Virus record (IMG/VR): IMGVR_UViG_3300009073_000008
Direction: 5' to 3' (one strand)
DNA length: 45,642 nt
DNA from: a virus
Part shown: positions 1,025 through 34,898 of the stretch, in pieces
Numbering within the stretch: the first letter of the stretch is position 1
Layout of the letters: the number at the start of each line of letters is the position of its first letter
Program-made: the position numbers and the translations under genes
The notes under the pieces: model-generated
Seen by the model: the letters and a program-made list of their open reading frames with translations, nothing else
Databases searched by the model: none
What the model was told of the DNA's origin: nothing

Positions 1025-1249
1025 TTATTTGGTTGCTAACTCTTCACGATCTCGCTTTGCGTTTAAATCCTCACCGCCTAGATTGCCTAGCTCCTGTCCT
1101 AGCCACATCTTTGCCTCCTGTAACTTGGTGATTGCTAATGCTCTCTCGCGTGAGCCCCCTGTAAAAGTATTGAGATTGTTCACAATCACTTGTATCTCTG
1201 CTCGTAATATCTTGCAAGCCTCTTGAGTCATTTCGTTATCTGGTGTCAT
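1025..1249 (-). CDS. hypothetical 74-aa helical protein (possible Acb2/Tad1-hairpin-like)
   Basis: ORF between TerL and portal. Motif SRERALAITKLQEAKMWLG resembles, from memory, the xLAxTKLEEAxMW hairpin motif of the Phage_gp49_66/Acb2 family. Not verified. Confidence 0.55.
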   Translation of the reverse strand: MTPDNEMTQEACKILRAEIQVIVNNLNTFTGGSRERALAITKLQEAKMWLGQELGNLGGEDLNAKRDREELATK

Positions 1250-2839: not shown

Positions 2840-3343
2840 TTAGTCAGTCATCTTGTCGATTGCATCATCAATCTCACCTTCACGTTCCTTGGTCAATGCG
2901 ACTGCGCCAGAGTGTTTTACTGCTAGAGTGTCGCCGTAACCCATACTCTTGCCCTGCGTCTTTGCAACAAACTTTGCTGTGTCCTGCGCCAACTTCCGGT
3001 CTGCCTTATAGTCATCAAGCGTGTCCTCTAGCACTTGCTCTGCCTTATCCAGTAGACGTGTCCTGCGCTCCATCGCGGTCTGAAACCACTCCGGGTTTTC
3101 ATACGTTATCTGGTCTGCATACTCCTCTGAGAACCCTGCTGCGATAGCGCTACCACGCGCATTTCCAAAGGTTTCACTCTGAGGATTGAGATATAACGAC
3201 AAAAACTCTACTTGCCGGGGGCTTAGTAGCTTCTCCGGTGGGCTCTCTTTGACGGCCTTTTTAGCTGCCTTTTTTACCACCTTTTTAGCTACCTTTTTAC
3301 GCGTAGCCTTTTTCTTTACTTTTCTTACTATTCTTTTTGCCAT
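2840..3343 (-). CDS. terS: terminase small subunit with Lys/Ala-rich N-terminal tail
   Basis: LSPRQVEFLSLYLNPQSETFGNARGSAIAAGFSEEYA matches the Terminase_2-type HTH pattern. Immediately upstream of TerL. N-terminus is MAKRIVRKVKKKATRKKVAKKVVKKAAKKAVKE. Confidence 0.8.
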   Translation of the reverse strand: MAKRIVRKVKKKATRKKVAKKVVKKAAKKAVKESPPEKLLSPRQVEFLSLYLNPQSETFGNARGSAIAAGFSEEYADQITYENPEWFQTAMERRTRLLDKAEQVLEDTLDDYKADRKLAQDTAKFVAKTQGKSMGYGDTLAVKHSGAVALTKEREGEIDDAIDKMTD

Positions 3344-3349
3344 TTTGAA

Positions 3350-3400
3350 ATAAAAAAAAGCAACCAGATGTCGCGATATACTCGCGTTATCTGATTGCTT
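3350..3400 (-). terminator. intrinsic terminator of late leader copy 1
   Basis: Minus strand: AAGCAATCAGAT-(19 nt)-ATCTGGTTGCTT, a 12-bp stem with one G-U pair, followed by TTTTTTTTATTTC. Ends just before the TerS ATG. Confidence 0.7.
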
Positions 3401-3453
3401 ATTTTTCGGATGTCAGCAATGGGTAGATTATGTGCTACCTCACTATTCAATTA
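3350..3453 (-). ncRNA. structured late-operon leader RNA, copy 1 (antiterminator/terminator switch candidate)
   Basis: Shares blocks with copy 2: TAATTGAATAG, a variable 5-bp hairpin, TTGCTGACAyCCGAAAAAyAAGCAA, then the terminator. Predicted start is about 7 nt after the -10 hexamer. Confidence 0.5.
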
Positions 3454-3458
3454 ACATT

Positions 3459-3487
3459 ATTATAGCACATAAGCCAACCCACAACAA
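3459..3487 (-). promoter_or_regulatory. sigma70-type promoter with extended -10 (late promoter 1)
   Basis: Minus strand TTGTTG-17 nt-TATAAT, preceded by TGc (TGCTATAAT). Confidence 0.55.
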
Positions 3488-3530: not shown

Positions 3531-3623
3531 CTACCAGTTACACGTCCAACATGTACCTTCCTCAATTTCTTTTTCGCTCTCAAGCTCACCGTTGCAAATC
3601 TTACATTTTGATTTCTTGCTCAT
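3531..3623 (-). CDS. 30-aa zinc-ribbon microprotein (below ORF-track cutoff)
   Basis: My translation: MSKKSKCKICNGELESEKEIEEGTCWTCNW, with CxxC-17-CxxC. Fills the gap between the 160-aa gene and late promoter 1. Confidence 0.3.
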   Translation of the reverse strand: MSKKSKCKICNGELESEKEIEEGTCWTCNW

Positions 3624-3705: not shown

Positions 3706-4188
3706 CTATGACCATTTTATATTTTGAACATGCCACACAATATCTTTATGGTTGCAATTCTGCATCACCTTATCAGCCTTGCCCTGGGTATACGTGACAC
3801 TTGTAACCTTCTTGCAATCATCACATTCTATATGATTTACCAATGATAAAGGTTTACTTTTATTAATCCAATCAGCACTATCCTTGCACCGCTCCACAAA
3901 ATCAGACATCCTATCCCAATCTCCTGCATTCAGTGTTTGTGGTTCTAGCATACGATAGCTTGTAAGATCACCCCAATCTTCCAAGCCTATAATATCTCTT
4001 ACATACTTTTTGAAGTAGTCATGCTGCTCATCATAAGTCTTGCCATTTTCCCACAGTGTCATCACTGAGGTGATACCGCTCATCATGCCAATGGCAATAT
4101 AACCATTACTCACCTCAAGCTCAATCCTTATAGCGTCACACGTCCGCGATCTTTTCATTGTGACCAAAACATCTTCTAGTGTTTTCAT
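3706..4188 (-). CDS. hypothetical 160-aa protein with C-terminal CxxC...CxH cluster (candidate late-gene regulator)
   Basis: Long ORF, last sizeable gene before late promoter 1. Contains ECDDCKKVTSVTYTQGKADKVMQNCNH. Confidence 0.8.
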   Translation of the reverse strand: MKTLEDVLVTMKRSRTCDAIRIELEVSNGYIAIGMMSGITSVMTLWENGKTYDEQHDYFKKYVRDIIGLEDWGDLTSYRMLEPQTLNAGDWDRMSDFVERCKDSADWINKSKPLSLVNHIECDDCKKVTSVTYTQGKADKVMQNCNHKDIVWHVQNIKWS

Positions 4189-4191
4189 AAT

Positions 4192-4887
4192 CTATACTTT
4201 TAAATCAATAAATCTCATATCTATCACACCCTTCATCTTCCAAAAATCGCCCCTTTGAAAGCTCCATATATCATCCCCATCCTTGCCTTTCACACTCACC
4301 CTAACAGTCATTACCTTACCATCATCACTAACAATAATATTTTTACAAAATGCAGATAATTCACCGCGCTTCATGTCGCCAACATTTCTACCAACTACAA
4401 ATAGCATTTTTCTATCGTGCATCCTTCCCACATAGCAATCAATCTCCGGTGACGGCTTCCGGGGCTTTTTGTACACATCAAGTCTCATAGGCGCATATGC
4501 CGGAAACCAATCCTCCCAATACAAATGGCCATATCGTCTATCAATGTTAAAGATCATATACCCACCCTCCAAACAACTCATCACGACTCTCTCTCCAAAG
4601 TCCTCACCCATAATCGGCATATCAAATACATCGTATTCCTTTACAACAATTTTTTCAGATATACCCATGCACCTCTCTCCGCTCAATAAAACACAATACC
4701 CAAACTCGAAACACAGGTAGCCTACATCAGCATATTCATTGTTGGTGGCTTTGATATATGGCTTCGCGTCATCATTCTTTATCATTTCTACCCATCTCTC
4801 TTGTTCGATCTCTTCTTTTTGTTTTGGTGGCTCGCACTCGGGCTTACCGCAAAACATCGTCCGTATCTCTGGTGTACATTTACACAT
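4192..4887 (-). CDS. hypothetical 231-aa protein, Cys-rich N-terminus
   Basis: ORF tightly packed with neighbours. N-terminus MCKCTPEIRTMFCGKPECEPP. Confidence 0.8.
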   Translation of the reverse strand: MCKCTPEIRTMFCGKPECEPPKQKEEIEQERWVEMIKNDDAKPYIKATNNEYADVGYLCFEFGYCVLLSGERCMGISEKIVVKEYDVFDMPIMGEDFGERVVMSCLEGGYMIFNIDRRYGHLYWEDWFPAYAPMRLDVYKKPRKPSPEIDCYVGRMHDRKMLFVVGRNVGDMKRGELSAFCKNIIVSDDGKVMTVRVSVKGKDGDDIWSFQRGDFWKMKGVIDMRFIDLKV

Positions 4888-4901
4888 ATATTTTTGTAAT
4901 G

Positions 4902-5114
4902 TTATTTATTTTTCATGTGCAACTCATAGCACTCTTTGTGATACTTCCAACATTTATCATGGTGTGTCGTACCCTCATTTACCTCAACAAAATCAATCTC
5001 TCTCACAAAATCCTCCTCTTCTGTCATGTTGCACATGCAACAAGTAGAGTCCATGTCACAGCCATCACAAAATAAACTCTCACCTGTCTCAATCGCTAAC
5101 TCTTCCTTTGTCAT
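4902..5114 (-). CDS. hypothetical 70-aa Cys/His-rich protein
   Basis: CDGCDMDSTCCMCNM...HHDKCWKYHKECY. Packed in the operon. Confidence 0.65.
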   Translation of the reverse strand: MTKEELAIETGESLFCDGCDMDSTCCMCNMTEEEDFVREIDFVEVNEGTTHHDKCWKYHKECYELHMKNK

Positions 5115-6068: not shown

Positions 6069-6251
6069 CTATTTTTTATTTACCTCCTGTCTGATCTGCT
6101 TTTTTATCCGCTCCCTTCTGCGCCTCGTCCACGCGCGACTATCAAATGGGCTGATATTTTCTTGGCGCTCTCTAAAGCTCAACATCTTTAAAGCCAATTT
6201 TCTTTTCAGACTCTTCTTGTGCCTTCTTTTCATATTGTTATTTTTCGCCAA
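6069..6251 (-). CDS. hypothetical 60-aa highly basic protein
   Basis: Arg/Lys-rich throughout (KRRHKKSLKRK...RRRRERIKK). Confidence 0.55.
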   Translation of the reverse strand: MAKNNNMKRRHKKSLKRKLALKMLSFRERQENISPFDSRAWTRRRRERIKKQIRQEVNKK

Positions 6252-8499: not shown

Positions 8500-8667
8500 T
8501 TATTTATCACCGCTACCGTTGTATACATCACTCGCTACACCCTTTAACCCTTCAACTCCAATCGTCTGATTAAACTTGAGTAGACCAACAAAGATTGCGC
8601 TCAATGATAAGAGTGTCAGAATTAGTATTAGTACTGCTGCAAACTTGATTATTGTTTCTAAAATCAT
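8500..8667 (-). CDS. possible 55-aa membrane protein (below ORF-track cutoff)
   Basis: My translation: MILETIIKFAAVLILILTLLSLSAIFVGLLKFNQTIGVEGLKGVASDVYNGSGDK. Fills the gap after dnaB. Confidence 0.45.
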   Translation of the reverse strand: MILETIIKFAAVLILILTLLSLSAIFVGLLKFNQTIGVEGLKGVASDVYNGSGDK

Positions 8668-8683
8668 ATTCTAAAATTAATTT

Positions 8684-9988
8684 TTAAATCGCATCCACTT
8701 GCTCCATGACTCCTGTGCTGCCAAGAAAATCAAGATCAACACTTCCACGCCTCCCATGCCTATTCTTTTTGACATGGCAATCAAGACGTACCGCTTCACC
8801 TGCTGCCTGTTGCCTTTCAAATACTTCCGGCTCTTCCACTGCCGATAGCTCAATGGCCAAGTCTGCTGCTGCTGCGATGCCACCAGACCCCTTGAAACCC
8901 ATAAGCTGCCGGCTACCATTCTTTGCTTGCTCATTACTCACCTGTGACAAAACAATGATCGGTACTTGTAATTGCTTCGCGACATTCTGCAATCGTGTGA
9001 TCGCAACGGTTGTCGTTTCATACTCTCCACGCGCATCTTTGACGTTTGCTAGTTGCAAAAAGTCTATGAAAAATAGATCAACCGGTTTTCTCATCATCTG
9101 GTTTTGCATTTCAATCACGATAGCCTCAAGATTATTTTCTCGCTCATAAACCTCTGTCTCTGCAAGGATGAAATCATCCTTAGCAGCTTGTATTTCTTTC
9201 AACTCCTCCGGCGTACCTCCTGCTTTACGTACCTTGTACATTGACGTATTTGCCATGATGCCAATTAAGCGTCCAAGAATATCTGTGCTTGTCATCTCTA
9301 GTGAGAAAAATACACATCTCTTACCCTGTCTGATTGCATTGCCTAGTATGTTCAAACTAAAAGCTGTCTTACCTGTGTTGGTATATCCGCCAATGACCCA
9401 TAGATGGCTTTTTCTAATACCATCTATCGCGCCATCAAGTTTTGAATACCCTGTAGAAATGCCGTGTATTTTTTGCCCTGCTGCCATGCGCTCTTGATAT
9501 TCTTTCTCAAGAACCTCATACGCTTGCACGACTGACTGCGCATCTGTTTTCTCATCTGTGCCTACTGACTCCGAGACCGCCAACACTTCACCTTGTGCTC
9601 TCTCGATAAGCTCCTGCGACTCGACTGTTACATCCTGTGCAATTTCGTTTATGTTTTGCGCTGCTACTTGCAACCTTCTTTGGGTGGCTATCTTTTTCAC
9701 CAACTTGGCGTAGTACCCAACATTGCTTGCTGATACAACTGCTGCAAAACAATCTGCGATAAATGATGCCGGGACGTGTGGTACTTTTTCACTCAAGATC
9801 AACACGTCAATAGCAGATTGTGCATCAAACAACTCCTCGATACCCTTGTACAATTCTTTGTAGTGTCCATCCGGGAGATCATCACTTGACATGATGTGTC
9901 GCACCAACGGTATCTGCTTGTTGTCCAAGATCAATGAGCCTATGATATTTCTCTGGTATTCAATTTCTGCATTTTGATTTTCGCTCAT
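8684..9988 (-). CDS. dnaB: replicative DNA helicase DnaB
   Basis: ISTGYSKLDGAIDG, Walker A GGYTNTGKTAFSLN, Walker B LFFIDFLQL. The ATGA overlaps the upstream gene. Confidence 0.92.
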   Translation of the reverse strand: MSENQNAEIEYQRNIIGSLILDNKQIPLVRHIMSSDDLPDGHYKELYKGIEELFDAQSAIDVLILSEKVPHVPASFIADCFAAVVSASNVGYYAKLVKKIATQRRLQVAAQNINEIAQDVTVESQELIERAQGEVLAVSESVGTDEKTDAQSVVQAYEVLEKEYQERMAAGQKIHGISTGYSKLDGAIDGIRKSHLWVIGGYTNTGKTAFSLNILGNAIRQGKRCVFFSLEMTSTDILGRLIGIMANTSMYKVRKAGGTPEELKEIQAAKDDFILAETEVYERENNLEAIVIEMQNQMMRKPVDLFFIDFLQLANVKDARGEYETTTVAITRLQNVAKQLQVPIIVLSQVSNEQAKNGSRQLMGFKGSGGIAAAADLAIELSAVEEPEVFERQQAAGEAVRLDCHVKKNRHGRRGSVDLDFLGSTGVMEQVDAI

Positions 9989-15140: not shown

Positions 15141-15170
15141 AAAAAAACACTAGATTTTTTTTCTAGTGTT
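15141..15170 (-). terminator. intrinsic terminator downstream of the int-HTH cassette (bidirectional shape)
   Basis: Minus strand AACACTAG-aaaaaaaat-CTAGTGTT followed by TTTTTT. Confidence 0.65.
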
Positions 15171-15263
15171 TATATAGTTTTAGTTGTAGGCCACCTATGC
15201 GACCAATATATTTTTATGTTATGTCGTAGCTGTGTACCCACTTACTGCGACTATATAACTCAC

Positions 15264-15321
15264 TAGAGTATAGTCTTTACTCTACACGCCACCACGTGAG
15301 TGATGATTTATAGAGTAAAGA
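15264..15321. repeat. three copies of TAGAGTA(A/t)A (two direct, one inverted); candidate attP arm or operator sites
   Basis: TAGAGTA at 15264, TTTACTCTA at 15276 (inverted), TAGAGTAAA at 15311. The 11-bp arms TCTTTACTCTA / TAGAGTAAAGA flank a 26-nt spacer containing CACGTG. Confidence 0.6.
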
Positions 15322-15387
15322 TTAAATTGTTAAGGTCTCTTTTTTCCTAACTTATAAAAGTATAACATATGCACAAAATCGTGCAAG

Positions 15388-16530: not shown

Positions 16531-16568
16531 AAAATCAAAACCGCCAAGGGGTTCAGACCTCGGCGGTT
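16531..16568 (-). terminator. terminator-like hairpin abutting the int start codon (attenuator candidate)
   Basis: Minus strand AACCGCCGAGG-8 nt-CCTTGGCGGTT (11-bp stem), then TTGATTTT and ATG. Confidence 0.5.
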
Positions 16569-16672
16569 CATATATTCTATCACACTTTGTAAGTGCACTA
16601 AAAAATATGCCTCCGCAAGCTGAACCGTACTCTGTGTGAGTACCTTGCAGGTGTATTAAATTTGTACCCAGT

Positions 16673-16700
16673 AATATACACCATGCAGCAATATTGTCAA
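16673..16700 (-). promoter_or_regulatory. candidate int promoter
   Basis: Minus strand TTGACA-16 nt-TATATT, about 140 nt upstream of the int ATG. Confidence 0.5.
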
Positions 16701-16754
16701 GGTTCAACAAATGAGTATAACATATACATGCCAATGTGGCAAGTCCATGACTAC

Positions 16755-26322: not shown

Positions 26323-26652
26323 TTATGCAATTTGTAGTCTCGCGGTTGTATTCGATGGAGCAATAAATGATATTGTTCGCCAGTTGATGGACTCATGTAT
26401 ATCAATTTCTACAGTTGCTCCGGCAGCAACTTTTATAGAACCTGTAGCATTTGCATCTACAGCATTACCATTTGCATCAATGCCAGATTCAAAATAAAGC
26501 TCACTATCAGCCTGTAAGACAATGCTTGGCGTAGCACCATTTACGCCACCACCTTTTGCGCCAAGCGTGTTCAAAAACTCACCTAGTTTTGTACCGTCAC
26601 CGCTCAAGATAGTCTCCAAAGACTGTGGACTTGTTGTTATAGAAATCTGCAT
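26323..26652 (-). CDS. hypothetical 109-aa virion-associated protein, first gene of late unit 2
   Basis: ORF directly after leader copy 2 and upstream of the fibre genes. Confidence 0.75.
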   Translation of the reverse strand: MQISITTSPQSLETILSGDGTKLGEFLNTLGAKGGGVNGATPSIVLQADSELYFESGIDANGNAVDANATGSIKVAAGATVEIDIHESINWRTISFIAPSNTTARLQIA

Positions 26653-26667
26653 ATATATTTTTTAGAA

Positions 26668-26719
26668 ATAAAAAAAAGCAACCAAACCTTGCATCCGGAG
26701 ATACTTTGTTTGGTTGCTT
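26668..26719 (-). terminator. intrinsic terminator of late leader copy 2
   Basis: Minus strand AAGCAACCAAAC-20 nt-GTTTGGTTGCTT (perfect 12 bp), then TTTTTTTTATTTC. Confidence 0.75.
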
Positions 26720-26774
26720 GTTTTTCGGGTGTCAGCAACGGTCTCTATAAGGCGGAGACTTCGCTATTCAATTA
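26668..26774 (-). ncRNA. structured late-operon leader RNA, copy 2
   Basis: Same block order as copy 1, with compensatory changes in all three helices. Confidence 0.5.
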
Positions 26775-26779
26775 CTAGA

Positions 26780-26807
26780 ATTATAGCATTATTTCTTATT
26801 TTTGCAA
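26780..26807 (-). promoter_or_regulatory. sigma70-type promoter with extended -10 (late promoter 2)
   Basis: Minus strand TTGCAA-16 nt-TATAAT, preceded by TGc. Confidence 0.6.
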
Positions 26808-26810
26808 AAC

Positions 26811-26840
26811 AAAAAACAGCCTTATATAGCTGTTTTTTAT
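26811..26840 (-). terminator. weak intrinsic terminator ending late unit 1
   Basis: AAAAAACAGC-8 nt-GCTGTTTTTT palindrome; on the minus strand the stem is followed by a T-rich run. Confidence 0.5.
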
Positions 26841-27401: not shown

Positions 27402-30400
27402 CTAATCATCTTGCACCTTACGCTTTGCAATATATGATGACCAACCCATCATCTGCCATAGATATTCTGGGTCTCCCTCGCGTACTGTTTTTACAATACT
27501 CTCTGTTTGGTCAACAAGTGTCTCAGCCGGCAATCCTGTTACATTTCCAATCGTTCCTCCTGCGCCACCTAACGCCTTCCAAATGTCAGCTTCCGTAATG
27601 TCTTTGTCGTTTACCAGCCTTACCATATCTGTAATATCATCGACTGCACCATACACTGCCATTTCATTACCAAAGTCTTTTTGTCCCATTGCTGTTCTGA
27701 TAATACTATCAAGACCAGTACCAACCAAAAATATTCCATTCATTGAGCCCAAGAGGCTTGCGCGCATCTGCCCTTCTTTTTCCCAATCAAAACCATTTGC
27801 AACAAATTGAAAAATGTTTGGTAGTAAAATGTGATAAATAAATATTGTTTTAGCATGTTGCTTTGGGTCTCCACGCTTCGCAATGATGTTACGTACCGCA
27901 TCAACTTCTTTTCTGAAATACTGATTTGGTGATGACAAAAATGATGTAAGCAGCTTTGAGACTGAATTTGAGCTCTGCCAAAAAGACTGCTCTGTTATAT
28001 CACCGGACTGTTGTGTTTGCTCTGTTGCCTTTTCAAATTCATATATCGCTTCCTCTTGTGTCTTTCCTTGGTCAAGATGATACTTGTATACAGACCAACC
28101 GCCCATGACAATAGCGCCCTCATCTCCAATTTTGATATTGAGCATCAGCTTATTAAGAAATGTTTGGCTACCAGACCACTTGGCAAATTCGTCTGAGTTC
28201 ATCGCATCTTTAATATCGCGCTCCATGTTTGAGCCACGTTCTTGTAAGAGCACTGAGCTCTCTTTCAGTGTTTTGTAGTTGTTTACAGGGTCTTTCCAAA
28301 AATCTGCATAGTTCTTAATGAAGTCCACAGTTGGTATGCTCTCAGCATATGCCGGGAAAGAAGTAAGCTGTTTGATAGCAATGGCCGGCTTTACCGCAAG
28401 CACGGCACGTGAAAAGTTAATACGCACCATATCAAGTTTCGCAATATTCTGTTTGCTACTCACTCCACCTTGTATGATGCCACTGATTTGATGGTCAAGT
28501 GATTTAAGTATTCCATCACCAAAATTTTGCTTAATTGCCTTGCGCACATCTGCATTACTGAAAGTAGAATTGAGCTTTTTGCTTGTATCAGCAAAAGCGA
28601 TAAAGTGCTCCATCTCAGCTACATGCTGCATAAGCACACCCATATCTGAGGCATCGCGCAATGGCTTCTTACTGCCAACACGGCTTTTCAATGAGCCCTT
28701 GGCTATGCTTTGACGCATTGATTGCTCATCCAAAAATGCTGTTATCGTTGCAAGTTGGTCACTTTCAACATCCCTACGTGCAATAGGACTATAAAACTCA
28801 TTAAATGGTAGTTCAACACCATACATATCTTTGTACACCTCGTTCACGCGTCCATGATAGTCGCGGTAGAAGTCAAGTTGTTTCTGCACAAAAATCTTAT
28901 CTTGTGTGCTAAGGACACCTTTGATCGCATCAACCATTTCGTCTGTATAGCCCATTGAAACAAAAAATGTCTCCTGTAGGGATGGGTCTTGCATCTCCAT
29001 GTATCTCTTGCGTAATTCTGCGCGAGACATCTTTATCTCAAACTTTTTTCCATAGGCATTTTCAAAAGTGCCAAGGTCTAACTCAATAGCATCCTCCGCA
29101 TGTTTTTGCATCGCTTCTTTCTGATCGAGACCATAAACCTCTGTAAATATATCTTGCACTTTTCTCAATGCTTCTGCGGTACTTTTTTTCTGTTCGTTCT
29201 TAGCAGCCAACATATCAAACTCCTGATTAAGAAAACTCTTTTTCGGGTCTGAGCCTTTGTCGTAAAATGACAATATGTCTAGCAAGTTGTCCCATCCAGT
29301 AAATGTCTTAAATGAGCTGATCGCGCCTCTCCTCGCTCTCTGCTTCCAATCCAAGCGCTTCTCTGCTGTAGAGTCATCAACAATACCATCGCCACCTGTA
29401 ATAACATTGACAATCTCCTCGTTACGTGCCATTGCCCCTTGATCAAATATCTCTTTGAAAAACTTGTTTGTAGATCGTCCATCATGTATCAAGCCCTCAA
29501 TACCTGTCAAGAGACTTGATAGCTTCTCTGGGTCTTTACTCAAGATAGCTGTGATAAACTTATTCTCAAAAACTTTGTCATCAGAAATAACACCTTGGTC
29601 TGCACTGTCAATATTTTTTATCACTAAATCTTCCATTGCCTCGTTTGTCATACGTGAAAGATCGCGCATCTTATCGAGCACGTTTTGTATCTCCGGGGTA
29701 AACTTGCCAACTGGCTTACCACCCTGCGTCTTTACTTGTGTTTTTTTCAAGTTCTTTTTGATCTTACCTTTAAGGTGACGCACCTGTGCCTCACTCTGCA
29801 ATCGGTCAATAAATGTGCGTGCAACCTCAATGTCCTTGGCATTTGTAGCATTTCTCACTGTTGCAAGCAATCGCTTCTTTTGCTCCGGGAAATCAGATAG
29901 CCGCTCATCCGCATAATCAGTAACAATTTTCTTCACTTCTTTTATCTCGTCACGCTCAATACGCATGTCCTCAATCTTCTCATCCTTTTTCTCCTTGGCA
30001 TCACTCACAGCCTCTTTCATCTTATCTCTGAGCTCATCCAAACGACTCAATACACGCTCTTTCTGCTCCTGTTTCTCCTGTGTCTTTTTTTGCTCCCGGC
30101 GTGCTGCTTCCTTGGCTGCTATAATCTCATGCGCTTTAATAAGAATACGTGTGTCCATCGACTTCTTTGTAGGCTCAAGCGCTTTGATCTTTTTACGTAG
30201 ACTAGCAACTTTTTTAGAGTCACCCTTCTTACGCGCATCCTTCAAAGACTCTCGCAATCCTGCAAGCTCTTTTCCATATGATGCAATCTTCTGAGCCTTA
30301 GTGATAGTCTCAACATCTTTTTTCTGATACTGAATACTGGCTGCTATGTCCTCTTTAGAGTATCTGCGTATCGGCATTTTATTTGCCTCATAATCATGCA

Positions 30401-33400
30401 TCGTAACATCTTGGCCTTCGATGCCATCAAGTAACATTGCATTAAGTCTTGCATCGTCTCCATCGCCATCATATAGTCCTGAGCCTACATCTGGTGATAT
30501 AAACTCATAATGGTCTGGCAACAAAGTCATTTCTAAAACAGCGCTATTGCCTCCGCCTGTAGCTCTATTCTTATCAAACTCAACTGCTGTAAAATACACT
30601 TCCTCGTTCATGTCACCCTTAAATCCATCTTTTAAGATTTTCTCGGCAACATCCTCACTTGTTTGATGATACATCTTAACACCATCTGGGTACTTCGATT
30701 TTAATATTTCGATAGAGTCCTCAAGTGTTAGCTCATCAGACTTATTCTCATACACCTCAGTACCAAGAACACTTTTAATATCCTTTTTTATCTTGAGCGC
30801 ATTTGCCGGTGATAGCACACGATTAAATAGCGCATCAACTTCTGACACTTTAAATGGTGTAAATACCTCTCTGAGCTTCGTGACAAGCCATGTGAGGTGT
30901 TGTTCTAGCTTAGACTTTGGCTCAATGTTCTTAACAAAGTGCTTTGCAAATTCCTCAGCAAGCACCTCCTCGCGCGCGACATTATCGCTTACACCGTGCT
31001 TCTTTTTGTATGCTGCAACTTCTTCCGGCATCTCTTTTGAAATAAGATCATACGCATCATTGCGCTCTTGCTCTGTAGCAACTAGATCATGGAAAGCATG
31101 AAACATCTCATGTGGCACTGTCGTTGCACGTGGGTTATCTTGAAATTTCACAATCGCATCAAAATATGAACCAAAAGCCTTGCCCCCGGCAACCTCTCTT
31201 GCGCTCTCAAGTGTCACACCCTTAGCAAAACCAAAGCGTTTAAATTGCTCTCTGGCCTGTTCATTCGTGATGACGGTATTAAACTCATCAGCCTTGCGCT
31301 GCATCTGTTCTTTTGGTAGTGTGCTGTACTCTGAAAAACGGTTGGCAATACCTGCTTCAACCATCGGCTTAATTTGTTTTTCAAAAACTTCCTTGCTCCA
31401 ATAAGCAGATCGCGTGAAATATGCTGTTTGACCACGACTGATCGCTACGTACTGCTCAATCATGCGCGCTGTCACTTCCACCTTAGATGCGTAGTATTTC
31501 CTTCTTGCTGAGGTGTTTATCATGTCACTGTAATTATTCATGCTGCGAGCAAACTCTTTCAATCGGTAGTTGTCAAACAACATTGTGTCAACTTCATAAT
31601 CAAGCATGTGGCCAAGCTCATGTGCCATAATTGTGTTCACTTTCTCAACAACCATCTTGCCATCTTTCTTGCCCTTAAAGCTCTCAGTGCCACCAACTGA
31701 AACACTTATACCATCATCTGTCTTTCTATATAGCCCTGCGACACCATTCATCAAAAATGGATTTTTGCCATTCAAATGCACAAGCACCCAACGCTTATCA
31801 GCACCAAGTCTTTCCATATCAAGATTAAGAGCTTTGGAAAACTCTACAACGCCATCAGCTATTTCATCAACTTGCTTTTTCGTTAAAGGTTCTCCATCTT
31901 GTCGCTTCATTCCAATGTTTGTCCGTCCGTCCGGGTCTGTGATAATCCTTGCATCATCAACACCAAAAGACGTAGCAAGCCCCTTTTCGTACCGCTCACG
32001 TGAGTTTACTGCTGTAGAAAAAGACTTGTCGTATGCAACAACTTCCTCAGGGTACTTGTAACCTTTTGATATATCCTTCTTTACACGCTGCTTGTATACC
32101 TTCTCTGCAAAGCCTTCCTCTTTTACCTTCGCAACAAAAGCATCTTTATGTGTACCAAACTGTGTTTTTCTTTTCCTTGTACTTCCCTCAAAAGCAAAGT
32201 CCATTTTCTTTTTACCACTATTCTCAACAATCATGTTTGTCATCTCGACATTTTTCATGTCTGGCAAGTTTTTATCATAATACTGCTGTGAGCTTGCGCT
32301 AACATCCTCACCGCTATTGAGCGCTTTTTCAATCCTCTCCATGCTATTAAAAAAGCCTTTGCTTCCCTGTATAAACCGTGCGCCACCTTCTCTTTTCTCT
32401 GCCTTTTCGATAAATGCCAAGACATCGTCAAACTCTTGCTTGACTGCTTGTATTCCTGCCTCTGGTGTCATCTGCTGTTGTGATATGCGGTCTGGTGCAA
32501 TACGCTTAGGGCCAACTACTTTTGACTCAGTGGCAATATCAACATTTGCCGGCAATGTTTCCACGCTCTGAGCGGTCTGCTTCTTTACTTCATTGCCTTG
32601 CTTAATATTAGACTCTAAAACCTCATTCTTCGCTTTGTTATCACCTTTTCTAACTTCATCGCTTGGCAAACCAAAGTCTACATCCGCGGCACTATAAGTA
32701 TCTTTCGCTGCAACATCTGACTGCTCAACACTCCCCACCGGCGCATCCGTCACGTTCTCTTGTATTTCTTCCCGGGGCTTCAATGATGCAACCTCAGCAC
32801 GCGATATGATTTCTTTTTTTATCTCTGCCAATAGCTCTATCTGTAGCACTGAGCCCTCTTTTGGGGTTTCACCATTCCTGTACATCTCCATCACTTTGTT
32901 AAATAGTGGCCTTTTGCGCAAGTGATCTGATACCCATGATGGAAATGTGGACTTTACAGCCTCAAAATTTAGATCATTATTCTCATAATTCTCTGTCATC
33001 TGACGTGAACCTGCCTCAGCTTGCTCCATTTCTGTGAAAACTTGCGCCTCAGCTTCGCTATAGTCTACAACCTGTGGGCTTATTTCTCTATCATCAGCTG
33101 TTTCAACCTCATTGTTTTCTATTTTCGCAACCATCTCCTCGATCTTTTGTTGCTGTTCTGGTGAAAACTTTGATACATCAAGCGACTCATCACCAAAAAC
33201 AGGGTCAATCTCACCCTCAAGACTTTGCGCATCCTCTTCAATCATAAGAGCATTAATACCACCCTTGCCAGCTTCAAGCTGCAATGCTTCTTTCTCACCT
33301 TCGATTAACGCATTTTCTTTACGTGTCTCAATGAGCTTGAGCGCAACACTCTCAATCTGCGGTGATAAGTCTGCACTAGACATGATCTGCGCGTACGCAT

Positions 33401-34898
33401 CTTTACGTACACGGTCTGATACACCCTCTTGCACCTGCACAGTATCATTCTTTGCAAGGTAGTCAACAACTTCATCAACCTTCTTTGTTCGCGCATCAAC
33501 CTCTTCTTGTACACTCACCACGATCTCTTGGTCAAGATCATTCATTGCGTCAATATCATTCTCAAGGTCTTGCAAGTCTGCAAAAGACATATCTTTCATA
33601 TTGCGCTTTGCTTCTTTGACATCACCTTGTGCAAAGCTATCACGCGCTTTTTGCTCTGCTTCTGATACTGTCGGCTCATCCTTTTGCCCTCCACCATCCC
33701 TATCAACCGTTGTATTTGCTGCATCAGCAATACCGCCGGCCAGTCCAAAAGTAAGCGCACCACCAATAGCGCCCTTTATCGTACTCTCAATCACGCCCTC
33801 GCTAATCTCAATATCTGGGTCTATCTCGTAAAGCTTTGCCATGAGATTTTGTGTAGCGTTCTGCAATCCCTCAGTAGCACCCTCGCCCGCACCTGTAAGC
33901 AACATTTCTTTTGCAATGGCATCCATCATACCAACAATGGATTTCTTTCCTGCCGGGGTACTTGTAAACTTTTTAAGTGTTTTCATTGGTATAACACTCT
34001 CAAGCGCACCGGCTGCCACGCCATATGTTGTTGACGCTTTATTTATCATCTCAATATCCTCATCGCTCAATTCCTCAACTGAGATACCTTTTCTCTCTGC
34101 AAGAATACTTTTATACTCCTCTGCGGATGACCCTTTTTCTATAGCGCCCATTACAGCCGTAGATGCTGCATATGCAAGCTTTGGGTTCTTGGTGGCTGCA
34201 AGTGTTGCGCCACTAGCTGCAAGTCCCGGGACGGTACTACCAAGCGCCTCTGCTGCAATATGCGCGCCTGTACTCATAAAACCTCGCTCATCCTCTGGTA
34301 TTGTATTTTGCATGTAGTCCTGCGCACCACCATCATAAAATCCCTCAACTGCTTCACCACCTGCCTCTGTGCGCTCTCCTGCCTTATTCTGTGCATTTAG
34401 CCAATTCTCTTGTGCCTCAGACTCAATCACTTGAAACTCTTCTTGCGATAGCTTGCCACGCTCAACTCGGCCACGGTCAACTTTTAACTGATTTTCTAAG
34501 CCCTCTTTAAAAGCGCCTTTAAGCTCATCTGATTGACCAGACTCACCGGCAACTTCCAACGCACTACCTGCACTAGAAATACCACCAGAAAGAGAACCCA
34601 TGTATGTATTCTTTACACTCCCCAAGGTTTTCATTGCACCTGCAATTTTACCCGGTTGCTTCTCGGGTATACCACCAGTAGCATCAAGAACATTAAAACC
34701 ACCCCAAGGGTCGTTACTCTTACCAGACGTTGCAACCTTACGCATCTTCTCTCGCTGCGCCATTGCTTGAGCCATTCGCTCCTTTTTTATGTCCTCCAAA
34801 GTCCTCTCTTCTCTTTCATCCTCAGTAGATAGCGTATTGTAGAGTACTGATTTCATTTTTTTGTTGTTAGTCTTTGCTCTCAAATTGGTGTCCGGCAT
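27402..34898 (-). CDS. 2498-aa polyvalent virion (ejected/internal) protein: two zincin HExxH modules, ART-like module, coiled coil, large C-terminal domain
   Basis: Uninterrupted 7.5-kb ORF. MAHELGHMLDY (H1093), VPHEMFHAFHD (H1263), KMYHQTSEDVAEKILKDGF...VYFTA...LEMTL (from residue 1409), and a K/E-rich coiled coil. An alternative ATG at 34856 would remove the 32-nt overlap with the upstream gene. Confidence 0.9.
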   Translation of the reverse strand: MPDTNLRAKTNNKKMKSVLYNTLSTEDEREERTLEDIKKERMAQAMAQREKMRKVATSGKSNDPWGGFNVLDATGGIPEKQPGKIAGAMKTLGSVKNTYMGSLSGGISSAGSALEVAGESGQSDELKGAFKEGLENQLKVDRGRVERGKLSQEEFQVIESEAQENWLNAQNKAGERTEAGGEAVEGFYDGGAQDYMQNTIPEDERGFMSTGAHIAAEALGSTVPGLAASGATLAATKNPKLAYAASTAVMGAIEKGSSAEEYKSILAERKGISVEELSDEDIEMINKASTTYGVAAGALESVIPMKTLKKFTSTPAGKKSIVGMMDAIAKEMLLTGAGEGATEGLQNATQNLMAKLYEIDPDIEISEGVIESTIKGAIGGALTFGLAGGIADAANTTVDRDGGGQKDEPTVSEAEQKARDSFAQGDVKEAKRNMKDMSFADLQDLENDIDAMNDLDQEIVVSVQEEVDARTKKVDEVVDYLAKNDTVQVQEGVSDRVRKDAYAQIMSSADLSPQIESVALKLIETRKENALIEGEKEALQLEAGKGGINALMIEEDAQSLEGEIDPVFGDESLDVSKFSPEQQQKIEEMVAKIENNEVETADDREISPQVVDYSEAEAQVFTEMEQAEAGSRQMTENYENNDLNFEAVKSTFPSWVSDHLRKRPLFNKVMEMYRNGETPKEGSVLQIELLAEIKKEIISRAEVASLKPREEIQENVTDAPVGSVEQSDVAAKDTYSAADVDFGLPSDEVRKGDNKAKNEVLESNIKQGNEVKKQTAQSVETLPANVDIATESKVVGPKRIAPDRISQQQMTPEAGIQAVKQEFDDVLAFIEKAEKREGGARFIQGSKGFFNSMERIEKALNSGEDVSASSQQYYDKNLPDMKNVEMTNMIVENSGKKKMDFAFEGSTRKRKTQFGTHKDAFVAKVKEEGFAEKVYKQRVKKDISKGYKYPEEVVAYDKSFSTAVNSRERYEKGLATSFGVDDARIITDPDGRTNIGMKRQDGEPLTKKQVDEIADGVVEFSKALNLDMERLGADKRWVLVHLNGKNPFLMNGVAGLYRKTDDGISVSVGGTESFKGKKDGKMVVEKVNTIMAHELGHMLDYEVDTMLFDNYRLKEFARSMNNYSDMINTSARRKYYASKVEVTARMIEQYVAISRGQTAYFTRSAYWSKEVFEKQIKPMVEAGIANRFSEYSTLPKEQMQRKADEFNTVITNEQAREQFKRFGFAKGVTLESAREVAGGKAFGSYFDAIVKFQDNPRATTVPHEMFHAFHDLVATEQERNDAYDLISKEMPEEVAAYKKKHGVSDNVAREEVLAEEFAKHFVKNIEPKSKLEQHLTWLVTKLREVFTPFKVSEVDALFNRVLSPANALKIKKDIKSVLGTEVYENKSDELTLEDSIEILKSKYPDGVKMYHQTSEDVAEKILKDGFKGDMNEEVYFTAVEFDKNRATGGGNSAVLEMTLLPDHYEFISPDVGSGLYDGDGDDARLNAMLLDGIEGQDVTMHDYEANKMPIRRYSKEDIAASIQYQKKDVETITKAQKIASYGKELAGLRESLKDARKKGDSKKVASLRKKIKALEPTKKSMDTRILIKAHEIIAAKEAARREQKKTQEKQEQKERVLSRLDELRDKMKEAVSDAKEKKDEKIEDMRIERDEIKEVKKIVTDYADERLSDFPEQKKRLLATVRNATNAKDIEVARTFIDRLQSEAQVRHLKGKIKKNLKKTQVKTQGGKPVGKFTPEIQNVLDKMRDLSRMTNEAMEDLVIKNIDSADQGVISDDKVFENKFITAILSKDPEKLSSLLTGIEGLIHDGRSTNKFFKEIFDQGAMARNEEIVNVITGGDGIVDDSTAEKRLDWKQRARRGAISSFKTFTGWDNLLDILSFYDKGSDPKKSFLNQEFDMLAAKNEQKKSTAEALRKVQDIFTEVYGLDQKEAMQKHAEDAIELDLGTFENAYGKKFEIKMSRAELRKRYMEMQDPSLQETFFVSMGYTDEMVDAIKGVLSTQDKIFVQKQLDFYRDYHGRVNEVYKDMYGVELPFNEFYSPIARRDVESDQLATITAFLDEQSMRQSIAKGSLKSRVGSKKPLRDASDMGVLMQHVAEMEHFIAFADTSKKLNSTFSNADVRKAIKQNFGDGILKSLDHQISGIIQGGVSSKQNIAKLDMVRINFSRAVLAVKPAIAIKQLTSFPAYAESIPTVDFIKNYADFWKDPVNNYKTLKESSVLLQERGSNMERDIKDAMNSDEFAKWSGSQTFLNKLMLNIKIGDEGAIVMGGWSVYKYHLDQGKTQEEAIYEFEKATEQTQQSGDITEQSFWQSSNSVSKLLTSFLSSPNQYFRKEVDAVRNIIAKRGDPKQHAKTIFIYHILLPNIFQFVANGFDWEKEGQMRASLLGSMNGIFLVGTGLDSIIRTAMGQKDFGNEMAVYGAVDDITDMVRLVNDKDITEADIWKALGGAGGTIGNVTGLPAETLVDQTESIVKTVREGDPEYLWQMMGWSSYIAKRKVQDD

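Follow-up and report, generated by a model that had tools for sequence, protein, structure and literature searches.

The virus record IMGVR_UViG_3300009073_000008 is a DNA sequence of 45,642 nucleotides (nt; this whole stretch is referred to below as the window), in which all of the genes lie on the minus strand and each late operon opens with one copy of a compact regulatory cassette. Before both late operons a promoter is followed by a leader of about 100 nt, a strong intrinsic terminator and then the first late gene. An initial annotation, made from the sequence alone, had described this arrangement upstream of the terminase genes and counted two copies, and the second is found at 26660–26810 on the minus strand, heading the second late operon. 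Copy 1 occupies 3487–3341 of the minus strand, and the promoter (TTGTTG-17-TGcTATAAT), the 5-nt gap, the box, the 5-bp hairpin and the 12-bp stem with U8 run that the annotation had placed there are all present, base for base. The features of copy 1 are as follows:

3482–3487, minus strand: -35 hexamer TTGTTG, with a 17-nt spacer to the -10
3459–3467, minus strand: extended -10 TGcTATAAT, the same in copy 2
3443–3453, minus strand: start-site box TAATTGAATAG, 5 nt (aatgt) from the -10
3422–3439, minus strand: hairpin P1, GGTAG (3439–3435), 8-nt loop, CTACC (3426–3422)
3394–3420, minus strand: candidate antiterminator P2, ATTGCT, 15-nt loop GACATCCGAAAAATA, AGCAAT
3352–3400, minus strand: intrinsic terminator, a 12-bp basal stem enclosing a 5-bp inner stem, then U8
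2840–3343, minus strand: small terminase subunit gene (terS), first gene of late operon 1 (phrog_51, E=1.3e-7)

The box starts 6 nt past the -10 hexamer and is predicted to span the transcription start. The basal stem of the terminator is formed by AAGCAATCAGAT (3400–3389) and ATCTGGTTGCTT (3369–3358), with the U8 run at 3359–3352, and the first part of its 5′ arm is also the 3′ arm of P2. The TerS ATG at 3343 lies 8 nt past the U run, close by as had been claimed, and the large terminase subunit gene (terL) comes next, at 1259–2830. Copy 2 has its parts in the same order:

26811–26838, no strand assigned: symmetrical terminator closing late operon 1, just upstream of the copy 2 promoter
26780–26807, minus strand: promoter TTGCAA-16-TGcTATAAT
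26764–26774, minus strand: start-site box TAATTGAATAG
26741–26759, minus strand: hairpin P1, GTCTC, 9-nt loop, GAGAC
26713–26739, minus strand: candidate antiterminator P2, GTTGCT, loop GACACCCGAAAAACA, AGCAAC
26670–26719, minus strand: intrinsic terminator (hairpin 26719–26676, U8 26670–26677)
26323–26652, minus strand: gene for a 109-amino-acid (aa) protein, first of late operon 2, with its ATG at 26652, 17 nt past the terminator

Late operon 1 contains terS, terL, portal and head/tail genes (of SU10 type in the loci of relatives) and ends at the terminator at 26838–26811. Late operon 2 contains the 109-aa open reading frame (ORF), a 485-aa beta-helix protein, a 1613-aa tail protein and lysis-like genes, and ends at its own terminator, 16794–16763. 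The gaps of 8 nt (copy 1) and 17 nt (copy 2) leave no space for a promoter between the terminator and the first late gene, so that read-through is required for these genes to be transcribed.

Comparison of the two copies

The promoter layout common to both copies is TTGnnn-16/17-TGCTATAAT, and their alignment is a mosaic. First, TGCTATAAT, the box, the block RTTGCT-GACAYCCGAAAAAYA-AGCAAY and GGTTGCTTTTTTTTATTTC are invariant or nearly so. Secondly, P1, in both its stem and its loop, and the interior of the terminator are wholly diverged. The initial annotation had singled out the P2 loop as conserved, and 13 of its 15 positions are indeed identical between the copies, but the most conserved element is the start-site box, which it had passed over; the exact 11-mer occurs twice in the whole window, once in each copy. 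A 27-mer pattern allowing up to three mismatches also has two sites in the window, with no matches in 100 dinucleotide shuffles.

All five P1 pairs are changed between the copies (GGTAG/CTACC versus GTCTC/GAGAC), and all five changes are compensatory. The terminator keeps 12 of 12 pairs, two of them double-compensatory and one changed from U.G to C-G; P2 keeps 6 of 6, with one compensatory change (A-U to G-C); and a 5-bp extension of P1 (UAGYG with CRUUG) keeps 5 of 5, with one change (U-A to C-G). The three varying positions form a single chain, U:A:U(:G) in copy 1 and C:G:C(:G) in copy 2, which is compatible with a three-state switch but gives no helix independent support.

Because the invariant blocks stand among diverged stems, the mosaic indicates that the copies are probably old and under selection rather than recently duplicated. 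This bears on an explanation without any switch, in which the cassette would be a partial terminator or insulator that ends the early operon with a fixed ratio of short to long transcripts, and the likeness of the copies would reflect duplication. Copy 1 does close an early operon of about 12 kb that has no other terminator, but copy 2 is already preceded by the separate terminator at 26811–26838 and a second one is not needed there; the compensation seen in the diverged stems argues for selection over recent duplication, and the association of box and terminator recurs in unrelated lineages (see below). We consider this explanation very improbable.

Leader folding and the alternative helix

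The full leaders fold to -35.6 kcal/mol (copy 1) and -36.1 kcal/mol (copy 2), with z-scores of -6.5 and -5.4, and both folds are dominated by the terminator hairpins (-23.5 and -23.6 kcal/mol). When the terminator 3′ arm is left out, P1 and P2 form in both copies. P2 and the terminator share the segment AGCAAY in each copy and are mutually exclusive, and it is on this that the initial annotation had built its alternative-pairing switch. In such a local RNA switch a factor from the phage or its host would bind the 15-nt loop and stabilise P2 (RTTGCT/AGCAAY), which holds the first six nt of the terminator 5′ arm and would so block the terminator, with the P1 extension as an anti-antiterminator. 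The design is that of the ribonucleic antiterminator (RAT) systems of BglG, SacY and LicT, which also have a weak hairpin with conserved unpaired bases whose 3′ side overlaps the 5′ arm of a stronger terminator, and in which termination is the default; unlike those systems, the window has no CAT-PRD protein, RAT sequence or Rfam match, the loop is of 15 nt as opposed to an imperfect 29-nt hairpin, and the context is that of phage late operons.

Several observations speak for a local switch. P2 forms in both leaders as just described, with all of its pairs kept and one of them compensated, as are those of the P1 extension, with a compensatory change at the linked position; the loop is nearly identical while the P1 stem and loop and the terminator interior are fully diverged; and in shuffled spacers a stretch of 6 or more Watson-Crick pairs with the 5′ arm of the terminator turns up in 1.8% of cases. 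A non-processive mechanism would also need every operon to lie between a cassette and an end terminator of its own, as both late operons do. The energies, however, are unequal, since P2 reaches only -4.3 (copy 1) and -6.4 kcal/mol (copy 2), and this helix could win over the much stronger terminator only if something held it. The covariation at P2 amounts to one compensatory pair between two sequences, a change in the single linked chain that is also explained by two other helices, the P1 extension and the terminator. There is no CAT/PRD, ANTAR, PyrR, HutP or similar protein or RNA family detected in the window that could act as the factor.

The cassettes of other lineages are also informative. 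The 21 box cassettes described in the next section were folded without the terminator 3′ arm, and the 5′-arm bases paired upstream were counted against shuffled spacers. Sequestration of the 5′ arm averaged 6.1 nt, versus 5.6 in the shuffles, and p ≤ 0.05 was reached in 1 of the 21 cassettes only, copy 2 of the window. The alternative helix is not a general property of box cassettes, which keep box and terminator with no excess of antiterminator pairing. The loop motif is moreover absent from 802 kb of relatives, and scans of viral and metagenomic sequences for it gave only chance matches in coding DNA (see below). What stands of the proposed switch is thus that P2 forms without the 3′ arm and has one compensated pair; its weak energy, its shared covariation and its restriction to the window make the local switch unlikely.

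A second explanation based on RNA is a cis-acting antiterminator of the put, EAR or canT type, in which the nascent P1 and P2 RNA would make its own polymerase resistant to the terminator, so that only transcripts from the cassette promoter would pass and control would be exerted through the activity of that promoter. The promoter is immediately followed by two stem-loops, and no protein regulator was found. HK022 likewise has two such elements in its genome, putL and putR, whose stems differ by compensatory changes and whose unpaired bases are conserved. As in both HK022 put and lambda N/nut, the genome has two similar RNA elements, each lying between a promoter, which it directly follows, and a terminator, with covarying stems and conserved unpaired bases, and the GAAAAA held in the P2 loop is reminiscent of the GAAAA loop of lambda boxB. 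RNA-only antitermination has been summarised elsewhere (PMC11658703). Unlike N/nut and put, the cassettes here stand before late, not early, operons and the hairpin overlaps the terminator; unlike nut, there is no boxA, and no N homologue was found in the window. In addition P1 has no conserved sequence, the other box lineages have no P1/P2-like structure, Rfam gives no match, and polymerases entering from the upstream early operon would transcribe the element as well, so that it would provide no insulation. A cis-acting element of this kind is improbable.

Database searches and distribution of the start-site box

The whole window has no Rfam match at the gathering threshold, and in a search at E ≤ 10 of the window, both copies and three related loci the best sub-threshold match had an E-value of at least 0.065, far below gathering; the initial annotation had likewise matched the leader to no described RNA family. 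Neither Rfam nor searches of the literature by sequence turned up this variant. BLAST comparisons with near and distant GenBank phages revealed no relatives and no meaningful leader match, and there is no close relative among GenBank phages or in IMG/VR. A covariance model extending from the box through P2, a check that the initial annotation had suggested, recovered only the two window copies from 99 sources (802 kb) of related phage DNA. The loop motif, as a regular expression with up to three mismatches, has no match in these relatives, nor has the loop pattern in IMG/VR, and the P1/P2 part was found only in the window copies. A box-plus-loop pattern in JGI metagenomes gave four loci, all rejected as chance matches within coding DNA.

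Homologues of TerL are abundant in metagenomes, with 61% identity in the best case. In a sister lineage (L004/5/6, L024 and L104, TerL about 60% identical), terS is preceded by TTGAC(A/G)-17-TAnnnT, 5 nt and the box TAATTGAATA (in L104 the variant CAATAGAATA), after which come a short leader, unrelated in the rest of its sequence, and an intrinsic terminator. The prediction that homologous phages would carry the element is borne out in part: this sister lineage keeps the promoter, box and terminator, but other lineages of the TerL family are without any such cassette, and P2 is not kept elsewhere. Two of the sister loci have long, apparently structured non-coding stretches without an Rfam match between the cassette terminator and terS (L004 630–775 and L104 3350–3440).

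We scanned IMG/VR with the pattern TTGACA-N16-18-TAnnnT-N5-TAATTGAATA and found 23 loci with 21 distinct promoters. The box is not over-represented after consensus promoters, a possibility that was rejected when a scrambled box gave 27 loci. With the true box at 5-nt spacing, a strong terminator is present within 100 nt in 12 of the 21 promoters and a TG-extended -10, as TGC-TAnnnT, in 16 of 21, compared with 2 of 19 (from one lineage) and 5 of 19 for the scrambled box; for the terminator the difference has a Fisher p of 0.003, or 0.004 after collapsing to lineages. The terminator accompanies the box in 3/21 cases at 6-nt spacing, 1/16 at 7 nt, 0/30 at 8 nt and 0/10 at 9 nt. From these two contrasts, the association is particular to the box and to its placement at the start of transcription.

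Many of the IMG/VR loci have a TGC-extended -10, the box, a leader of 40–90 nt, a strong terminator and a gene 10–60 nt further on, and the cassette is found in very different sequence backgrounds, up to G+C-rich ones (L126, L127). Judged by sequence, the design of box and terminator recurs in about ten unrelated metagenomic phage lineages. The downstream genes that can be named are late genes, encoding scaffold (L113), TerL (L124), TerS (L117, L004, L024) and, at window copy 2, tail proteins. If the cassette is defined as TTGnnn-16/18-(TG)nTAnnnT, 5 nt, TAATTGAATA, a strong terminator within 100 nt and a late gene, it includes both window copies, L004/L024/L104 and 12 of the 21 IMG/VR loci. 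The k-mer and folding tests across the box cassettes were negative, and the shared parts are thus the promoter, the box and the terminator only. A second shared leader motif (CTGAC / GCTGAC / CCGAA) was discarded, being within the maximum expected over all k-mers in shuffles, as was a leader peptide, the small ORFs in the two window leaders not being conserved.

The box also occurs in other settings. At L112 (locus minus strand, about 4806–4930) the same promoter and box are followed directly by a tRNA-like gene with no terminator, a layout that recalls the tRNA genes just downstream of PR′-tR′ in some phages of the Q-lambda family. In a group of IMG isolate-derived elements of about 30 kb (L287–L289, L295, L309, L329, L336 and similar), the box lies 8–9 nt past the -10 with no terminator and is followed by a perfect palindrome with the same half-site, AATTCAATATTGAATAA; in this group it may be part of an operator. 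In another (L290, L297, L312, L325, L338, L352, L361 and similar), it lies 6 nt past the -10, with GGAAA directly behind it and an ATG some 10 nt on, and there it is, as read from the sequence, the start of a short 5′ untranslated region without a terminator.

These settings bear on the possibility that the terminated RNA of about 100 nt is itself the main product, a phage small RNA with its conserved 5′ end, AAUUGAAUA, as the seed, the late genes being reached by leaky read-through. A strong promoter, invariant 5′ end, variable body and Rho-independent terminator would suit such an RNA, and when the leader folds with its terminator formed, the bases of the P2 loop that precede the A-tract are unpaired, with a hairpin on each side. 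There is also a precedent in StxS, a short RNA by-product of termination at the late promoter (PR′-tR′) of Stx phages (PMC7547250), although here there is neither sequence similarity to StxS nor any sign of Hfq binding or targets. Only chance-level 8-mers, and no convincing complementary target, were found in the phage, and the cassette is in every case closely linked to an essential late gene that reads in its direction and lacks a promoter of its own. Since the L112 promoter and box directly precede a tRNA gene, and in other loci a box spaced 6 nt from the -10 stands before a ribosome-binding site, the box is not tied to a small-RNA body. A small RNA as the main product is also improbable.

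Similarity to Q-dependent late-gene control

Late-gene antitermination is a textbook mechanism, although its molecular detail comes almost solely from the enterobacterial lambdoid phages and their three Q families. The initial annotation had compared the cassette to lambda PR′ and tR′, and this is apt, with a lambdoid-style early region that leads into the cassette. As in a lambdoid Q cassette, there is a strong promoter with an intrinsic terminator within about 50–200 nt directly upstream of the late genes, a conserved element at the transcription start, a position at the end of a lambdoid-style early/nin region, and a short terminated RNA as the presumed default product. This compact layout is shared by divergent phages of the Q-lambda family, some of which carry tRNA genes directly after it. 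There are also departures: the window encodes no member of the three Q families (Pfam PF03589 and PF06530 were looked for), the box is a poor -10-like hexamer, and there are two cassettes, each with an end-terminated operon, rather than one cassette for one long operon. The published Q cassette consists of the Q gene, PR′, a start-proximal pause element, the terminator and the late genes, and neither sequence nor fold relates the three known Q families to one another (10.1101/651190; PMC9388147), which makes a fourth unrelated factor plausible.

The reading that we favour, tentatively and with somewhat less than even confidence, is that the cassettes are Q-like, antitermination-controlled late-operon control units in which terminator override is set up at the start-site box. 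One cassette each would control operon 1 (terS-terL-portal-head onwards) and operon 2 (tail and lysis). A host sigma-70-type promoter with an extended -10 would fire, with the transcript starting inside the box TAATTGAATAG and by default stopping about 100 nt on, at the strong intrinsic terminator that abuts the first late gene, so that the late genes would be expressed only when the terminator is overridden. The override, which would depend on a trans-acting factor and may or may not be processive, would be established while the elongation complex is still at the box near the promoter, as for lambda Q at the qut site. Since the promoter, the box at its fixed distance and the terminator are common to all of the box lineages, the box is the most likely place for it, and since this start-site feature is shared by phages with unrelated neighbouring genes, a Q-like mechanism is favoured over a lineage-specific RNA switch. 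It is less likely that the override depends on an alternative RNA helix confined to one lineage, and the annotation's view that the design is closer to a protein- or ligand-controlled attenuator gives way to the Q-like one. The P1 and P2 block of this phage may then be a recognition site for its own factor or an added local antiterminator, and the switch first proposed could coexist here with loading at the start site, for example with P2 as the RNA site of the phage's own factor.

Two other interpretations of the box were rejected. It shares the 8-mer ATTGAATA with the lambda PR′ spacer, but this is not found in other promoters of the Q-lambda family; the match to lambda is probably a coincidence, and the box is not a lambda-type Q-binding element. 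Nor is it part of a promoter for a phage polymerase or phage sigma factor, as sigma-70-type -35 and -10 elements stand at a fixed spacing in every lineage.

Several points weigh against Q-like control at the box. First, the box, at about +1 to +10, makes a poor and unconvincing -10-like pause element, its core hexamer TTGAAT having no A at position 2 and matching TATAAT at 4/6 positions; the L104 variant TAGAAT is the only one with an A at position 2. Secondly, loci with the box are no more numerous than those with a scrambled box, so that the wider family rests on the association with the terminator and the TG motif. Thirdly, searches of the window detected no member of the Q, sigma, RinA or ArpU families or of any other regulator family, the ORFs adjacent to the promoter have no homologue of any kind, and the small ORFs upstream of the cassette in other phages, including one of about 80 aa in the sister lineage, are not homologous to anything in the window. 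Finally, each late operon is bracketed by a cassette and its own end terminator, which suits a local mechanism over a processive one, nor did any strong internal terminator turn up for which processivity would be needed.

A terminator close to the promoter before late genes is of a known kind. What appears to be novel here is the invariant start-site box, its spread over uncultivated phages, the presence of two cassettes per genome and the lack of any known Q family. A broader proposal, which we regard as doubtful, is that TAATTGAATA, set 5 nt from an extended -10 and with a strong terminator behind it, is the hallmark of a class of antitermination cassettes for phage late genes that is widespread but so far undescribed, a fourth Q-like system. 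In such a class either the host polymerase would recognise the box or this would fall to small phage proteins that evolve fast and are encoded directly upstream, and the cassettes would be common to phages of very different G+C and gene content. Made up of a promoter, the 10-nt box at the start site and a terminator, and found in unrelated metagenomic phages ahead of terS, portal, scaffold and tail genes, the cassette would be a compact unit recognisable from sequence, and would give a handle on late-gene timing in uncultivated phages. It would show where late operons begin in contigs that lack annotation, draw attention to the small ORFans beside it as possible new antiterminators and supply a portable regulatory part. 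The leader in two copies, with its box, P1, P2 and terminator, is a ready mutational design for separating start-site loading from an RNA switch.

Candidate regulatory proteins

The early region encodes, in order, an integrase, a helix-turn-helix protein, Erf, a YqaJ exonuclease, NinB, a DnaD-like loader, DnaB, RusA and small ORFs, and ends in ORFans of 231, 160 and 30 aa at the place where Q would sit, with copy 1 next. These three, and a fourth early ORF, are of interest as possible factors:

3531–3623, minus strand: 30-aa ORF with CxxC-x14-CxxC, directly upstream of the copy 1 promoter, without a family match
3706–4188, minus strand: 160-aa ORFan with a C-terminal CxxC...CxH, in the position that a Q gene would hold
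4192–4887, minus strand: 231-aa ORFan
6069–6233, minus strand: 54-aa ORF, extremely rich in arginine and lysine (MKRRHKKSLKRKLALKM...RRRRERIKK), without a family match

The 30-aa ORF could, from its motif and position, be a small zinc-ribbon regulator. The 54-aa ORF resembles an arginine-rich RNA-binding peptide and is, more speculatively, an antiterminator candidate. The 160- and 231-aa ORFs have no homologues among 5.8 billion proteins or by exhaustive HMMER searches and no similar sequence in the PDB, and the 30-, 160-, 231- and 70-aa ORFs have no Pfam or PHROG match. A single-sequence AlphaFold model of the 160-aa ORF has a pLDDT of 34 and is unusable. In several of the box lineages an ORF of 56–81 aa, with no Pfam match, ends inside the -35.

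Other features

Two more layouts resembling promoter, leader and terminator, with sequences unrelated to the cassette, lie at 16538–16742 and 15145–15385 on the minus strand; one directly precedes the integrase gene and the other the first early gene. Directly after terL, a 74-aa ORF (1025–1249, minus strand) has a precomputed Pfam match to Acb2_Tad1_hairpin (PF24729; gene at L007 11582–11806), which suggests an anti-CBASS/Thoeris nucleotide sponge. A 2498-aa ORF (27402–34898, minus strand) lies near the end of late operon 1, just before the terminator that precedes copy 2. Among the related loci, L106 has a tRNA-like sequence with an unusually long insert between terS and terL (700–790), and L001 has an apparently structured non-coding stretch with an N-masked run beside HNH genes (8560–8860), with no Rfam match. 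The G+C content of the window is 42.6%, regions upstream of genes are A-rich, and a Shine-Dalgarno-like motif is present before 6 of 59 genes; despite this scarcity the intergenic promoters look like classic sigma-70 -35/-10 promoters. The metagenome-assembled genome bins that hold TerL relatives are mostly those of candidate-phyla-radiation bacteria.

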